From Candidatus Bathyarchaeia archaeon (lineage in GTDB: Archaea > Thermoproteota > Bathyarchaeia > Bathyarchaeales > Bathycorpusculaceae): a stretch of DNA of 46,896 nucleotides. Positions 28,426 through 36,361 of the stretch are shown piece by piece. Position 1 is the first letter of the stretch, and every line of letters begins with the position of its first letter. The stretch is from positions 1 through 46,896 of the forward strand of contig JBEKGO010000019.1 in the NCBI GenBank assembly GCA_050012755.1, in the 5' to 3' direction. The notes beneath the pieces are model-generated. The model was not told the DNA's origin. It did not search any database and was given only the letters and a program-made list of their open reading frames with translations. The translations under genes and the position numbers were made by a program.

Positions 28426-29016
28426 CTAAGTTTTGGTTTTCGCAAGTATAAGCATCATAGACTTTACCCAGTAATCATGAACTTTCTTGTTTGGGATGCC
28501 GATGAGAAGTTTTGCTAGCGTGCCCATATACAATGCTGTAAAAAGTTCAGCCAACACGCGAGCATCAACATCTGTCCGCATAACTCCCTGCTTCTTTTTT
28601 TCCTCTACAAAAGCTTCAACTGCCCCAATGTCTTTTTGGTAATCTTCAAAAACTATTTTCCGAATTCTCTCGTCATGTGAAGATAGGGCTACAATTTCAA
28701 ATTGCGTGTGCAGATTGCCCTTGTACTTCTCTGTTATCATCGTGTAGACTCTTTCCAACGCCTCTTCTAGATTGCTGCAGGTGCCTGTTTCACTAAGTAT
28801 GGTTCTTAATATTTGATGACCATTGAGGCTGATTTCTTTTAGGAGGTCTTCTTTACTTCTGTAATAAGAGTAGAGGGCACCTTTGCTTACTCCAACTTCT
28901 TTGGCGACGTCATCCATTGTGGCGTCGTGATAGCCTTTTTTTGCGAAAACTATGCGGGCGGCTTCAACAATTTTGGATTTGGCTGCTTCTTTGTATTCTG
29001 GAACTACTTTGGGCAT
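28426..29016 (-). CDS. TetR/AcrR family regulator
   Basis: MPKV...ATMDDVAKEVGVSKGALYSYYRSKEDL; ATG at 29016. Confidence 0.93.
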   Translation of the reverse strand: MPKVVPEYKEAAKSKIVEAARIVFAKKGYHDATMDDVAKEVGVSKGALYSYYRSKEDLLKEISLNGHQILRTILSETGTCSNLEEALERVYTMITEKYKGNLHTQFEIVALSSHDERIRKIVFEDYQKDIGAVEAFVEEKKKQGVMRTDVDARVLAELFTALYMGTLAKLLIGIPNKKVHDYWVKSMMLILAKTKT

Positions 29017-29086
29017 TTCTAACCGCGTAATATTGATGTGTTTTACTTTAAAACTGTTGCTATTGGCGACGATAAGTATATTAATT

Positions 29087-29097
29087 GACTGATAGTC
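29087..29097. promoter_or_regulatory. Putative TetR operator GACT-N3-AGTC
   Basis: Palindrome just downstream of the TATA-like TATATTAA of the MFS gene, between divergent tetR and MFS. Confidence 0.45.
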
Positions 29098-29126
29098 GCT
29101 ATTTTGAAATACGAAGTGAAAATAAC

Positions 29127-30608
29127 ATGGGCACAAGCAATCCCACTAACGCGAACTCGGCTACTCTAAAAGGTGGCTTCGGCTCAAGTTACACAACTAG
29201 AGTTCTCTTAACAATAACCGCAGTCTCGCTACTGATGAATTATGTTGAAACAATGGTTATTCCCGGTATATACGATATCCAAAAGGACCTATCAACTACA
29301 TCCACAATCGCATCATGGATCACTTCAGCCTTTCTAATTGTCGGAGCTGCCGTCTCACCGTTATTTGGAAAACTCGGCGACATTTACGGCAAAAAAAGAA
29401 TCTTCCTCACGGTTCTACTCTTCTATATTGCTGGAGTAGGCTTAGCTGGATTTGCCTCAAACATATACATGCTTATAGCTGCAAGAGCTGTCCAAGGCAT
29501 CGGCTTCGCCATAGTTCCATTGGGATTAGCCATAATTACGGATGTTTTCCCCAGAGAGCGAGTAGCCACCGCCCAGGGCATAATCAGCGGAACCTTCGCC
29601 ATCGGAGCCGCCGCAGGCCTAATCATAGGTGCCTACATTGTAGAAGACTTGAGCTGGCAATGGGCTTTCCACACAGCCTTCATTCTAAGCATAATTCTAT
29701 TCTTTGTGGCTTTAGTTGCACTAAAGAAAGATGTACCTGGCGAAAAGAGCAAAGTAGACGTCACAGGAGCAGCTATGTTAATGTCAGGCATAGTTCTTGT
29801 ACTGTTGTACTTAACCGAAGGCCCAACTTTAGGTTGGTTATCGCTTGAAAACATCGCGCTCCTAATACCAGGTATTATCTTAACTGTTGGCTTCTTTGCC
29901 TTCGAAAACAAACAAACCAGCCCACTTATCCAGTTGAGTTTGCTTAAAATCAGAAATGTCCTGATTTCAAACTTGGTGGGCATACTGTCCAGCATGTCCA
30001 TGTTTTTAGTGTTCTTTGCAGTCATTTACTACGCTCAATACCCAACATTTGGGCATTATGGGCTGGGTCTGAGCGTTATCAATACTGGATTGACACTTGC
30101 GCCTGCGACAATAGTGATGCTTATCGTTGGGCCATTGATGGGTAGGCTTGTAACCAGAATAGGGCCAAAACCCATCCTCATTTTGGGGGGATCAATCAGT
30201 ATTGTAGGTTTGCTGCTGTTTATTTTCTCAAGAGGAACCACAATGGAACTAACTATAGATGTAGCTGTCGCACTGGTAGGAGTCGTATCCCTGATTATAC
30301 CGATAGTGAACATGATTTCTGTGTCGGTGCCTAAAGAAAACACAGCGGTCGGTTTAGGGATGAACACCATGTTGCGAAACCTCGGAGGCGCTGTAGGTCC
30401 AGTTCTCGCTACAACCCTAATTTCCACATACTACGACAAAGTTGGACCGCCAATACTGCCAACAGTCATGGAGTTCGGGAACAAAACTGCCTTTAACACA
30501 ATATTCGCCATAGGCATCGGCTTAATGATAATGATAATTGCACTGAGCCTAACAGCCAAAAACTATACATTCACCAAAAACAACGGAAAAAAAGAAGAAA
30601 AACAATAG
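29127..30608 (+). CDS. MFS transporter, 14-TM drug/H+ antiporter type
   Basis: GKLGDIYGKKR motif A, RAVQGIG, multiple TMs; ATG at 29127. Confidence 0.92.
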   Translation: MGTSNPTNANSATLKGGFGSSYTTRVLLTITAVSLLMNYVETMVIPGIYDIQKDLSTTSTIASWITSAFLIVGAAVSPLFGKLGDIYGKKRIFLTVLLFYIAGVGLAGFASNIYMLIAARAVQGIGFAIVPLGLAIITDVFPRERVATAQGIISGTFAIGAAAGLIIGAYIVEDLSWQWAFHTAFILSIILFFVALVALKKDVPGEKSKVDVTGAAMLMSGIVLVLLYLTEGPTLGWLSLENIALLIPGIILTVGFFAFENKQTSPLIQLSLLKIRNVLISNLVGILSSMSMFLVFFAVIYYAQYPTFGHYGLGLSVINTGLTLAPATIVMLIVGPLMGRLVTRIGPKPILILGGSISIVGLLLFIFSRGTTMELTIDVAVALVGVVSLIIPIVNMISVSVPKENTAVGLGMNTMLRNLGGAVGPVLATTLISTYYDKVGPPILPTVMEFGNKTAFNTIFAIGIGLMIMIIALSLTAKNYTFTKNNGKKEEKQ

Positions 30609-31524: not shown

Positions 31525-33057
31525 TTGACTAATAGTATAAGCTCGGTTTACAGTAATCTTTTAGCCAAAATTAAAGACGTTACCGTATTGGGAACGGCTG
31601 GAGGCATTATTCACTGGGATATGGAGACAAAGATGCCGCCAGGAGGTGTAGAGCAACGCAGCGAGCAACTTGCATTGTTGAGTCGGATCCAACATAAATT
31701 AGCTACTGACCCAGAAATAGGAAAACTCTTAAACATCATAAAAACAAGCTCAGAATACGAAACGCTGAGCCAAGTGGAAAAACGCAACCTTTACCTTATC
31801 AGAAAAAGTTACCTGGAACAAACCAGTTTACCAGAAAAACTAGTTGCCGATCTAGCCAAACAAGAAGCATTAACAGTAAATGTTTGGAAAAAAGCCAAGG
31901 CTCAAAAAAACTTTAACCTCTTCAAACCCAACTTGGAAAAGCTTTTAGACTTAAACAAACAAGCGGCAGAAATACTCATGAAAGTTAAAGAAACCAAAAC
32001 ACCATACGAAGCGTTGATTGATAATTTTGAACCTAAAATGACTGCAACTCAAATTACAGCAACCTTTACTCAACTCCAGCAAGGCTTAAGGAAGCTAATA
32101 AGCCGAATTCAAGCCAGCCAAAACAGGCCAGATACAGCGATGCTTAATCAGTCGGTTTCAACTGAAAAACAACGCAAAATAACGCAACTCATCACACAAA
32201 CACTGGGATACGACATCTCCTCACCAGAAGCTCGCGGAAGAGTAGACGAGACAGAGCATCCCTTCACCACAGGCTACTATGATGATGTCCGCATAACCAC
32301 CCATTACCACTTAAACAGCTATGCAAGCTCCATCTTTTCCGTCCTTCATGAAACAGGACATGCACTCTATGAGCAAAATCTGAATCCAAAATGGAAGTAT
32401 CAACCTGTAGGGTCAGCATGCTCATACGGAATTCATGAGTCACAGTCTCGTTTCTATGAAAATGTAATTGGCCGCTCGGAAGAGTTCTGGACATACTTTA
32501 TGCCAAAAATAAAGAAAACTGCTTCTAGTCTTGCCAATGTTGAATTGGAAAAGTTTGTGCGAGCTATAAACAAAGTTGAGCTATCCAAAATACGTATTGA
32601 AGCGGATGAGGTAACTTATAATTTGCATATAATTATCCGATTTGAAATTGAAAGAGACCTCTTCGCCGAAAAAATTTCAGTAAAAGAGCTTCCTCAGGTG
32701 TGGAATGAGAAATATTCACAGTATCTTGGTGTCACGGTTGAAAATGACTCTGAAGGAGTAATGCAAGATACACATTGGGCAAGCGGATTATACGGTTATT
32801 TCCCAAGCTACGCACTCGGGAACATTTACAGTGGGCAAATAGTCGCCGCCGTTACCAGAGACCTGCCAGACTGGCGAAAAGAGCTTACTAAAGGAAACCT
32901 ACAGCACATTAACGAATGGCTAAAGACTAATATCCACAGTCAAGGCAACCTCTTTGACCCAGAAGAACTCATAAAAAAAGCAACTGGAAAAACTCTGGAT
33001 GCCCAACCTTACCTAAAATACCTAAATACAAAATACTCAAAGCTTTATGGGTTTTGA
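31525..33057 (+). CDS. Carboxypeptidase, M32 (Taq) family
   Basis: HPF, DVRITT, HETGH (HEXXH), HESQS, IRIEAD, GVMQDTHW, YFPSYALG. Confidence 0.96.
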   Translation: MTNSISSVYSNLLAKIKDVTVLGTAGGIIHWDMETKMPPGGVEQRSEQLALLSRIQHKLATDPEIGKLLNIIKTSSEYETLSQVEKRNLYLIRKSYLEQTSLPEKLVADLAKQEALTVNVWKKAKAQKNFNLFKPNLEKLLDLNKQAAEILMKVKETKTPYEALIDNFEPKMTATQITATFTQLQQGLRKLISRIQASQNRPDTAMLNQSVSTEKQRKITQLITQTLGYDISSPEARGRVDETEHPFTTGYYDDVRITTHYHLNSYASSIFSVLHETGHALYEQNLNPKWKYQPVGSACSYGIHESQSRFYENVIGRSEEFWTYFMPKIKKTASSLANVELEKFVRAINKVELSKIRIEADEVTYNLHIIIRFEIERDLFAEKISVKELPQVWNEKYSQYLGVTVENDSEGVMQDTHWASGLYGYFPSYALGNIYSGQIVAAVTRDLPDWRKELTKGNLQHINEWLKTNIHSQGNLFDPEELIKKATGKTLDAQPYLKYLNTKYSKLYGF

Positions 33058-33269
33058 AGAGGCAGTTTCTTAGTCAATTCCTTATAAACATAGATGATGA
33101 TGTAAGCTGCGATTGCACCGATTGAAAGATAAAGACCTGTGAATCCAATAGTCTCATATTGAAAAGGCTGCGCACTAGTGCCGCCCCATAAAGAAATGTT
33201 AGCGCCTATCACAAACAGTAAAAAGCCAATTATGAATGCGCCTAAACAGGTCCAGTCAGTCCATGACAC
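33045..33269 (-). CDS. Small 2-TM membrane protein
   Basis: GTG start with GTGAGGT SD; two hydrophobic helices. Confidence 0.65.
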   Translation of the reverse strand: MSWTDWTCLGAFIIGFLLFVIGANISLWGGTSAQPFQYETIGFTGLYLSIGAIAAYIIIYVYKELTKKLPLQNP

Positions 33270-33424
33270 CGAATTACCTCACATCACGAATTCAATAAAA
33301 CCTATGATATATAGACTTACCTTTAATTTTTCAAGAAACTGCGGCTACCGCAAAAATGAAATATAATATTTTCAAACGTAGCATATAGTGGCGGCAGATA
33401 TCCTTAATATTTTTTTCTGAGCAT

Positions 33425-33482
33425 CCGACATTTTTATATATAAGATAAACTAAGAGAGCGCTGAGGCTAGAAAAAATGTCGG
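33425..33482. repeat. Perfect 11-bp inverted repeat CCGACATTTTT-N36-AAAAATGTCGG around the fae-hps promoter and start codon
   Basis: Arms at 33425-33435 and 33472-33482; TATA-like TTTATATATAA at 33433-33443; ATG at 33476. Confidence 0.8.
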
Positions 33483-34915
33483 GATCAGAGGTAAAAAAGC
33501 CAGAAACAAGAGAAGAATTTATCAAAATACTTACAGAAGCAGCAAAAAAAGAAGCAGGCCTAAAAAATAGGCCATCAAAACCGACAGTTATTGGAACTGC
33601 TAAAGAAATGGAAATTCACAGAGACACCCTCTATACATGGCTAAAAGAATTTAATGTCGATTTCAAAGAAATCGTTGACCGCATGCCGACAATCGCTGAC
33701 GATGTGGAGGAAGATTCAGGACCCACCTACCTAATCGGCGAATCATTGCTAGGGGAAGGAAACGAAGTTGCACACATTGACCTGATGATAGGTGACAAGA
33801 ACGGACCTATTGGACAAGCATTCGCCAATGGCATGTCACAATTATCAGCCGGCCACACACCAGTTCTTGCAGTAATCAGACCTAACCTGCCGCCAAAACC
33901 ACACACACTCATCGTGCCAAAAGTCACCATCAAAAACATGGAAGATACGGGCAAGATTTTCGGTCCAGCACAAGCAGCGGTCGCAAAAGCCATCGCTGAC
34001 TCAGCCGAAGAAGGAGTTATCCCAGCAAACAAGCTAGACAGTTGGGTTATTATTTGCAGTGTCTTCATTCATCCAAAAGCTACTGATTTTCGCAAAATAT
34101 ACCAATACAACTATGGCGCAACAAAAATGGCGCTACAACGAGCCCTAAAGAATTACCCGTCACTAGAAAAGATCATCTACGAGAAAGACCGCTCGAAGCA
34201 TCCAATCATGGGATTCAAAGTTCCGCGCCTGTGGAGACCACCATACCTACAAATCTCGCTTGACGCACCCTCACTTGAAAACGCCAAGAAAATCCTATCT
34301 CAACTTCCAGGCAGCGATAGAATCATCATTGAAGTTGGCACACCCTTAATCAAACGCTACGGAACAAGAGTAATCAATGATTTAAGAACAGTCGCTAGAG
34401 ACTTTTTCATGGTTGCAGACCTGAAAACACTTGATGTTGGAAAAGTTGAAGCAGACATAGCTTACGAAGACACCGCGGATGCAGTAGTTGCAGCAGGATT
34501 AGCACCGCCAGAAACCCTTGACGCATTCGTTCATGAAGCTAAGCGTCTTGGAATATACGCAGTTATCGACATGCTAAACGTTGAAGATGTACTTGGGAAA
34601 CTCAAATCACTAAAAGAATTTCCAGACATTGTCATATTGCACAGAGGCATTGATCAAGAAAGTGGAAGAACATGTGGACTTGAACGGATAAAGATTATAC
34701 GTCAAGCATTTATTGGCAAAAAGTTCCTAATTGCAGTCGCGGGTGGCATAGTGCCAGAAACAGCTAAAGAAGCATTAGAACAAGGCGCAGACATACTCAT
34801 AGTCGGCAGATACGTGACACAGTCAAAAGACGTTGAACATGCGATACGAGACTTCCTTGAGTTAACCCCAAGCATGCGCGAAGACATCGACCTATTCAGA
34901 GTACACACAGAATAA
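33476..34915 (+). CDS. fae-hps: Bifunctional formaldehyde-activating enzyme / 3-hexulose-6-phosphate synthase with extra N-terminal HTH
   Basis: Fae: GEGNEVAHIDLMIG, FGPAQAAVAKA, YNYGATK; Hps: EVGTPLIK, DLKTLD, LHRGID, AVAGGI, VGR; aa 37-59 look like a Fis-type HTH. Confidence 0.93.
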   Translation: MSGSEVKKPETREEFIKILTEAAKKEAGLKNRPSKPTVIGTAKEMEIHRDTLYTWLKEFNVDFKEIVDRMPTIADDVEEDSGPTYLIGESLLGEGNEVAHIDLMIGDKNGPIGQAFANGMSQLSAGHTPVLAVIRPNLPPKPHTLIVPKVTIKNMEDTGKIFGPAQAAVAKAIADSAEEGVIPANKLDSWVIICSVFIHPKATDFRKIYQYNYGATKMALQRALKNYPSLEKIIYEKDRSKHPIMGFKVPRLWRPPYLQISLDAPSLENAKKILSQLPGSDRIIIEVGTPLIKRYGTRVINDLRTVARDFFMVADLKTLDVGKVEADIAYEDTADAVVAAGLAPPETLDAFVHEAKRLGIYAVIDMLNVEDVLGKLKSLKEFPDIVILHRGIDQESGRTCGLERIKIIRQAFIGKKFLIAVAGGIVPETAKEALEQGADILIVGRYVTQSKDVEHAIRDFLELTPSMREDIDLFRVHTE

Positions 34916-34968
34916 ACCAAGAATTTGAGCCGAAAAGGCTCGCTCAATTTTTTTCTTTTCCCAGTTTT

Positions 34969-36213: not shown

Positions 36214-36361
36214 AGCAAAAAGACGACTTCAAAGTTGCATTAAAGCTTTTGGCTAAACAAGAATAGTTTGCTTAGAAAGTAGGCATGAAATAATATTTTC
36301 TCATAAATCCTTAATAGAGAGTTGCCCAATTTCATACAGCGCTGGAGAGTTAAGCAGCAAA

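Follow-up and report, generated by a model that had tools for sequence, protein, structure and literature searches.

A terminase-type helix-turn-helix head on an archaeal Fae-Hps enzyme and its probable role in autoregulation

We analyzed a 46,896-nt stretch of DNA (the window) from a Candidatus Bathyarchaeia archaeon (assembly GCA_050012755.1, contig JBEKGO010000019.1, positions 1 to 46,896). The fae-hps gene of this window (33476-34915, forward strand) encodes a 479-aa protein composed, from the N- to the C-terminus, of an 84-residue extension, formaldehyde-activating enzyme (Fae), and 3-hexulose-6-phosphate synthase (Hps). The extension contains a helix-turn-helix (HTH) domain, hereafter the head, related to that of the phage small terminase gp3. 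Comparison of homologous loci indicates that the enzyme probably binds, through this head, an inverted pair of the hexamer CCGACA in its own promoter and represses its own synthesis. The following parts of the gene were distinguished.

33476..34915, + strand: fae-hps open reading frame (ORF), 479 aa, ATG start, one open frame, stop-free as in the full-length matches of relatives
33476..33685, + strand: N-terminal DNA-binding-type domain (head), aa 1-70 (AlphaFold2 (AF2) model, structural matches, hhalign, pN/pS)
33587-33607, + strand: helix 2 of the head, aa 38-44 (AF2)
33620-33649, + strand: putative recognition helix, aa 49-58 (AF2)
33686..33727, + strand: acidic variable linker, aa 71-84, differing in length and sequence among relatives and having no conserved start codon
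33728..34210, + strand: Fae domain, aa 85-245 (PF08714, TIGR03126)
34241..34852, + strand: Hps domain of the orotidine monophosphate (OMP) decarboxylase fold, aa 256-459 (PF00215)

Head types of Fae-Hps in the archaeal class

A survey of the heads of Fae-Hps covered 301 genomes drawn from the class; a match at E ≤ 1e-20 was obtained in 212 of them, and 150 of the 306 matches were listed. Among the matches listed, 67 in 66 genomes aligned with the window protein from residue 6 or earlier. The full-head genomes among them belonged to the family of the window (all 48 genomes with a match), to two further families of the order, and, in one case, to another order. Most other matches began near residue 80-85, yet many of them lay in open frames of 448-488 aa. 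A second head type, ribbon-helix-helix (RHH), was found in all 27 loci chosen by a long open frame. Of the 23 RHH heads scanned, 12 matched ParD_antitoxin and 8 matched RHH_1; the ParD structure 3kxe matched the RHH head with an E value of 7e-5, and the AF2 model comprised an extended stretch and two helices with a predicted local distance difference test score (pLDDT) of 75. A third head type, resembling the HTH of resolvases, was present in two loci, where HTH_7, HTH_23, and HTH_28 scored over their cut-offs. No head was found in 22 loci chosen for short frames, and full matches from other classes of the phylum lay in open frames of 407-440 aa. The source labels of close homologues were Bathyarchaeota archaeon or Crenarchaeota archaeon.

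In the enzyme-body tree (79 rows; L062, L064, and L066 were left out), the RHH forms made up one side of a branch with a support of 93, the third head type formed a single clade (support of 95) among headless forms, and the HTH forms fell into nearly one group. The distribution of head types required four changes on this tree, the minimum being three. Three unrelated types of predicted DNA-binding domain are fused at the same position of Fae-Hps in separate clades.

Promoter repeats specific to each head type

The region around the fae-hps start in the window contained the following elements.

33424..33430, no strand assigned: promoter-proximal half-site TCCGACA (candidate operator), directly 5' of the TATA box (k-mer ranking, conserved spacing)
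33433..33442, + strand: TATA-box-like TTTATATATA, an A/T box after the half-site in a 28-locus alignment; its position suggests a promoter role
33463..33466, + strand: GAGG, Shine-Dalgarno-like, 9 nt ahead of the ATG; GAGG or GAAGG occupies the same place in genus loci, which points to this function
33477..33482, no strand assigned: second half-site TGTCGG, the reverse complement of CCGACA, overlapping the start codon and codons 2-3 (comparative)

Half-sites were revealed by an unbiased ranking of every k-mer within the 209 nt surrounding a start, with coding-sequence windows as controls. The top 6-mer in HTH-type loci was CCGACA/TGTCGG, with 71 copies in 29 of 30 loci against 38 of 180 control windows; its 7-mer form TCCGACA was present in 12 of 13 diverse HTH-type loci and in 9 of 78 control windows. 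The top 7-mer in RHH loci was GTGACAC/GTGTCAC (27 of 27 loci, 49 copies; 1 of 162 control windows). These motifs were mutually exclusive: none of the 27 RHH loci contained TCCGACA, and none of the 30 HTH loci contained GTGACAC. In both loci of the third head type, the TATA box of the promoter was flanked on each side by TGCCGCA/TGCGGCA.

The positions of the half-sites in HTH-type loci were nearly constant. In 28 of 30 loci, CCGACA immediately preceded the TATA box and was located 50-53 nt ahead of the start codon, and in 27 of 30, TGTCGG lay over the start codon at +1 or +2; wherever the two were found together (26 loci), their centers were 51-54 bp apart. Around the hexamer, only the A/T box was conserved, and the other flanking positions varied (28 loci). 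Codon 2 was TCG in all 27 HTH-type loci counted (L012, L027, and L030 not included), against 7.1% of serine codons elsewhere in the same genes; the RHH forms used AGC or AGT at this codon. Families outside the genus of the window had one to three further copies of CCGACA upstream. A palindrome about 12 nt ahead of the TATA box, with a further copy upstream, was characteristic of RHH promoters. Other promoters in the window lacked CCGACA at the equivalent place. In these comparative data, each head type goes with a promoter repeat of its own.

An 8-mer, CCTTAATA, was noted at 33402-33409, 73 nt ahead of the fae-hps start, and again at approximately 36309-36316, about 50 nt ahead of the S6e gene. 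It is possibly a common form of TATA box and B recognition element in this genome and may mark a second fae-hps promoter.

Joint loss of head and half-sites, and search for further targets

Three related loci had a changed head. In L030, the second copy in one genome of the genus, the HRD of the recognition helix was changed to QLD; in L087, from one genome of the genus, and in L088, another second copy, the HTH was deleted in frame. Either half-site was kept in none of the three loci, L087 having one-base changes in both. In these relatives, loss or mutation of the HTH went together with loss of both half-sites. The head very probably binds DNA, because three unrelated domain types share one position, each with its own repeat, and because head and repeat were lost jointly.

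CCGACA was not over-represented in the genome of the window (835 copies seen, 771 expected). It was followed by a TATA-like box five times, and only the copy in the fae-hps promoter was paired with TGTCGG at the start codon. Inverted pairs were at chance level (7 seen, 7.3 expected). A TATA-like box lay within 8 nt after the first half-site in two of these seven: the fae-hps promoter and C8:5046, with a spacing of 31. Of these two, only the fae-hps pair was shown to have the second half-site on the start codon, the surroundings of C8:5046 being uninspected. Searches of the window's genome with the hexamer and the inverted pair did not find a second target. The composite operator of the RHH type occurred once per genome, at the fae-hps promoter, in all five genomes searched. 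A previous interpretation made from the window alone (the sequence-only reading) had proposed that the enzyme may also act as a transcription factor. The comparative data support this as regards a DNA-binding head with a co-varying promoter repeat and not as regards a regulon, since the paired site was confined to the enzyme's own promoter.

Fold and relationships of the head

The AF2 model of the head had a mean pLDDT of 86.3 and helices at aa 12-29, 38-44, 49-58, and 63-69; in this model, the head folds confidently as a four-helix HTH. The sequence-only reading, which had suggested structure prediction as a check, was right in expecting an HTH followed by an acidic linker: HTH structures were the best matches of the model, the HTH stretch quoted there lies at aa 37-59, and the acidic linker at aa 71-84. 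An alignment of 29 heads revealed invariant residues at P9, T37, G40, D50, T51, Y53, W55, V61, and F63. The rows listed by a structural search (VIA-align) were nearly all HTH DNA-binding domains, with best Z scores of 5-6.7, although Z values of 5-7 are common for small helical models. They included the AraC-type 3mkl (Z 6.7), sigma-28 (Z 6.0), many TetR heads (Z 5-5.9), and the P22 small terminase 3p9a (Z 4.9). Foldseek against the PDB gave no match to the head at E ≤ 0.001, the best E values being about 1, Fis chains included.

All Pfam matches of the extension alone were sub-threshold: HTH_29 (20.6 bits; cut-off of 28.1), HTH_28 (20.6 bits; cut-off of 25), and GP3_package (20.1 bits; cut-off of 29.4). 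The last of these, PF16677, matched aa 34-75 without reaching its gathering cut-off in the window, and a few relatives carry it in precomputed tables. A profile search of the head against 1.84 billion representative proteins retrieved 107 proteins at E ≤ 0.001, which, beyond Fae fragments, were multi-HTH repeat proteins and small gp3-like proteins. Nine of the small proteins checked exceeded the PF16677 (small terminase gp3) cut-off. The head aligned with these nine by hhalign with a probability of 99.1% and an E value of 6.2e-19 over 41 columns of the HTH part only, a comparison that is partly circular, since the gp3-like set was chosen from matches of the same head profile. The homology with gp3 of tailed phages includes the motif PT..G.A..L..HRDT.Y.W and is limited to the HTH part: the hhalign alignment ended at column 80 of 152, and the post-HTH (oligomerization) part of gp3 is missing from the window protein, which also differs in its Pfam score below the cut-off. 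On the basis of these profiles, the head is an HTH of the terminase type that lacks all other terminase parts, and the protein is not a terminase.

The sequence-only reading had assigned the head to the Fis/HTH_8 type. This identity was not upheld: HTH_8 was not among the Pfam matches at E ≤ 1, the gp3-like HTH was the nearest kin, and the case for Fis rests on a weak match of the NtrC-family domain 4l5e to the head (E 0.08).

Proteins P0210, P0213, P0222, P0226, and P0243 (300-820 aa) consisted of 5-11 tandem HTH repeats matching the head profile. Apparently stand-alone heads of 76-103 aa (P0122, P0149, P0153, P0155, P0165, and P0145) were encoded on long contigs of metagenome assemblies; their tails diverged inside the linker in a frameshift-like manner, and they may be split genes or assembly errors. 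None were seen among the representative genomes searched. A partial head-Fae protein, P0147, was labelled 'Verrucomicrobiae bacterium', unlike the other labelled relatives, which is probably a binning error.

Proposed autoregulation and its alternatives

According to the best explanation, the HTH head would most likely recognize the hexamer CCGACA. Two inverted copies of it, separated by about 52 bp, lie on either side of the TATA box and of the probable start of transcription. The bound head would hinder the use of the promoter, and the enzyme would thereby limit its own synthesis; repression is suggested because one half-site abuts the TATA box and the other overlaps the start codon. The half-sites, separated by about five helical turns, may be bridged by an oligomer, and DNA binding may respond to a metabolite of the reaction. 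The role suggested by the sequence-only reading, reporting the status of formaldehyde, tetrahydromethanopterin (H4MPT), or hexulose 6-phosphate, would be a hypothetical form of such a response.

A more far-reaching version, which we consider possible but rather doubtful, is a self-sensing homeostat. In this version, an oligomer displaying several HTH heads would bridge or wrap its own promoter between the two CCGACA sites and release the DNA when the enzyme is occupied by a metabolite, which may be formaldehyde, H4MPT, or a pentose or hexulose phosphate, and the same solution would have arisen three times, once with each head type. If it were true, selection would act on the coupling of the catalytic state of the enzyme to its own expression.

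Several points weigh against autoregulation. Besides the ordinary Z scores and the Foldseek result given above, every Pfam HTH match of the window's head was below the curated cut-off, and the head is nearly neutral (14 K+R and 13 D+E in aa 1-70). The half-site is only 6-7 bp long, and its copies are about 52 bp apart, which is unusual for a simple HTH dimer; such sites would need an oligomer or a bend in the DNA. Because the loci are related to one another, the counts overstate their independence; three gains and three losses can be taken as independent. Finally, the head could have been acquired jointly with its operator, as one cassette, and co-variation alone is therefore no proof of present-day binding.

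The low Pfam scores and the net charge near zero would also suit a head with a role other than sequence-specific binding to its own promoter, such as oligomerization, contact with a partner protein, or non-specific tethering to the nucleoid, the motifs being read by another factor. Small-terminase HTH domains sit on ring oligomers, which adds to this possibility. However, it does not account for three structurally unrelated DNA-binding types at one position, for a different promoter repeat with each head type, or for three HTH losses or mutations accompanied by loss of both half-sites; an unrelated trans-acting factor would not be expected to switch with the fused domain each time. We therefore regard such a role as unlikely.

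The repeats could also act in RNA. In a leader transcribed from an upstream promoter, CCGACAU would pair with AUGUCGG and hide the start codon, providing translational control instead of an operator. Within the genus, the half-sites extend to about 12 complementary bases, which could pair if transcription began upstream, a further point against autoregulation by the head. The fold of 33418-33495 gave a 12-bp stem of -15.1 kcal/mol (z -1.82; 9 of 200 shuffles were as good), and the second TATA-like CCTTAATA at 33402-33409 would offer a start for such a leader. Across families, however, only the hexamer is complementary, so that the stem would shrink to 6 bp and enclose about 45 nt of loop, and the hexamer is invariant, hence there is no compensatory change supporting the pairing. 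The two elements are separated by a universally conserved TATA box, the transcript of which would be devoid of the 5' arm, while CCTTAATA is missing from many loci of the genus and from other families. Extra copies of the hexamer in other families occur in both orientations, up to 186 nt upstream, and a comparable arrangement, palindromes ahead of the TATA box, is seen in the RHH-type and third-type promoters. These features make an RNA hairpin very improbable.

Conservation and translation of the extension

The 84 residues ahead of the start of the family model NF009833 correspond to the approximately 83 extra residues counted by the sequence-only reading ahead of the normal Fae start. The extension is not a chance open frame, because it is shared by 691 database proteins (263-839 aa; E ≤ 0.001), the best 120 of which all carry Fae. 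Matches were obtained in 37 of 41 related genomes; all 24 other genomes of the genus matched, and ten matches from other families of the order aligned from residue 2-6 to residue 479 with 66-70% identity. The homologue survey that the sequence-only reading had called for found the extension conserved across families of the order. In 19 of 20 loci from the genus, ATG was situated exactly 47 codons ahead of HRDTLY, in several of them directly after a stop codon. The ratio of nonsynonymous to synonymous differences (pN/pS) was 0.22 over codons 4-70 (171 genus pairs; median difference at synonymous sites of 0.59) and 0.12 for the enzyme body. Public records call the long ORF and name it only 'bifunctional Fae/Hps'. 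Judging by codon-level comparison, the extension is under purifying selection, real and translated.

Contigs of four metatranscriptome libraries, originating from relatives with 85-95% likeness, ran through the head. Two of them bridged the junction between head and Fae: record 1 of X1 (33563-33861) and record 9 of X2 (33561-34033). Their support for translation is weak, because contigs cannot show the end of a transcript and DNA may be present; the missing cover over 33383-33504 is uninformative, and the transcription start is unreadable from contigs.

Translation might instead start near Fae, the long ORF being an annotation artefact and aa 1-84 not being made. A Met at aa 70 in the window and one member of a related database cluster called shorter (423 aa) are consistent with this. 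The sequence-only reading had named a start near aa 70-85 as one finding that would refute its proposal. Such a start is not conserved, because the linker has no conserved Met: it is absent from the linker in L002, L006, L008, L011, and L014, and no other start is conserved there. An internal start at Met70 was rejected for this reason. The pN/pS over the head codons, the invariance of recognition-helix residues across families, the conserved ATG, often directly after a stop codon, the GAGG 9 nt ahead of it, and the RNA-library contigs through the head region also contradict an artefact, the probability of which we consider negligible.

Two genomes of the genus had incomplete fae-hps matches. 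The match at G014:C19:114072-115214 was in pieces with several stop codons, and at G002:C6:286354-286452 only a 33-residue remnant was matched; both may represent pseudogenes or poor assembly.

The Fae-Hps enzyme body

Both enzyme domains were recognized separately. PF08714 (Fae) covered aa 87-245 (E 5.5e-69; 231.7 bits, cut-off of 27), and TIGR03126 gave 250.8 bits on the same domain (cut-off of 118). PF00215 (OMPdecase/HUMPS) covered aa 256-459 (E 8.8e-34; 117.8 bits, cut-off of 27), while TIGR03128 on the Hps domain alone gave 128.9 bits, which is below its cut-off of 200. The bifunctional Fae/Hps model NF009833 of NCBIfam aligned from end to end, aa 85-478 corresponding to model positions 2-390 of 392, with a whole-protein score of 578.3 bits (cut-off of 274). 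The canonical methanogen Fae-Hps described by this model is therefore matched over the whole enzyme body and, unlike the window protein, has no N-terminal head.

The motifs located were YLIGES (aa 85), HID (aa 100), EVGTP (aa 286), DLKTLD (aa 315), and HRGID (aa 389); each catalytic-type motif quoted for the two domains by the sequence-only reading (HID; EVGTP, DLKTLD, HRGID) was present. The enzyme body looks intact, and both Fae and Hps activities are predicted from the motifs HID, EVGTP, DLKTLD, and HRGID. These activities are the condensation of formaldehyde with H4MPT and the interconversion of ribulose 5-phosphate plus formaldehyde with hexulose 6-phosphate. In archaea without the oxidative pentose phosphate pathway, Hps and Phi work in reverse to provide ribulose 5-phosphate, and Fae captures the released formaldehyde onto H4MPT.

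A terminator-like feature was found 11 nt past the stop codon.

34926..34952, + strand: hairpin followed by a T run, suggestive only, as the region has 3 such sites and 2.4 are expected

The gene after fae-hps is on the opposite strand.

Comparison with known systems

We found no description of a DNA-binding head on Fae-Hps in the literature by title or abstract, subscription journals being mostly outside the coverage. Regulation of hexulose-phosphate synthase linked to formaldehyde is known from Bacillus, where HxlR is the activator of the ribulose monophosphate operon hxlAB. HxlR is not part of the enzyme and comes from a different family, whereas the head studied here is fused to its enzyme.

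Enzymes doubling as transcription factors are few, and the described archaeal case that we found is RbkR, a riboflavin kinase that carries a winged HTH at its N-terminus (Rodionova et al. 2017, PMC5397151). RbkR resembles Fae-Hps in several respects: it is an archaeal metabolic enzyme with an N-terminal DNA-binding domain on one chain, it was first predicted by comparative genomics of operators, and monofunctional forms without the DNA-binding domain occur in some lineages; autoregulation was suggested in 36 genomes (PMC5397151). RbkR controls a regulon for riboflavin synthesis and uptake, whereas Fae-Hps has a paired site at its own promoter only. The head of RbkR is of the MarR type and not gp3-like, and its binding and effectors (riboflavin and flavin mononucleotide) were measured (PMC5397151), whereas the operator of Fae-Hps is predicted from sequence. 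Recruitment of three different heads also distinguishes Fae-Hps from RbkR.

BirA, NadR, and PutA are listed in the same paper as bacterial 'trigger enzymes' with fused DNA-binding domains (PMC5397151). They share with Fae-Hps the combination of an enzyme and a DNA-binding domain on one chain, and their DNA binding is thought to be gated by the state of substrate or product. They differ in the enzymes, in the head families, and in having known operators and effectors, and none of the three is known to act on formaldehyde or pentose-phosphate metabolism.

If our best reading is correct, a central enzyme of one-carbon metabolism and pentose synthesis would join the enzyme-transcription factors, with an unusual head apparently taken from the phage small-terminase family. 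The recruitment of three unrelated DNA-binding domains to one enzyme, each with its own promoter repeat, would represent a rare natural replicate. To our knowledge, few regulators have been characterized in Bathyarchaeota-like archaea, and fae-hps may offer a handle on gene regulation in this group. If a metabolite gates the binding, the protein could serve as a ready-made sensor of formaldehyde or pentose phosphate.

Neighboring genes and another Fae fusion

The M32 carboxypeptidase gene is followed, ahead of fae-hps, by a reverse-strand ORF of 74 aa (33045-33269), which has two hydrophobic segments and matches no Pfam family; it overlaps the carboxypeptidase stop by 13 nt. Further upstream, at 28426-30608, a TetR-family regulator on the reverse strand was divergent from a major facilitator superfamily transporter on the forward strand, a classic regulator-efflux pair.

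In relatives from the order (L032 in G025 and L033 in G032), a second Fae forms the C-terminal part of a larger protein (about 495-517 aa), which is another Fae fusion; its first approximately 330 residues resemble, by eye, an aldolase of the dihydrodipicolinate synthase type.

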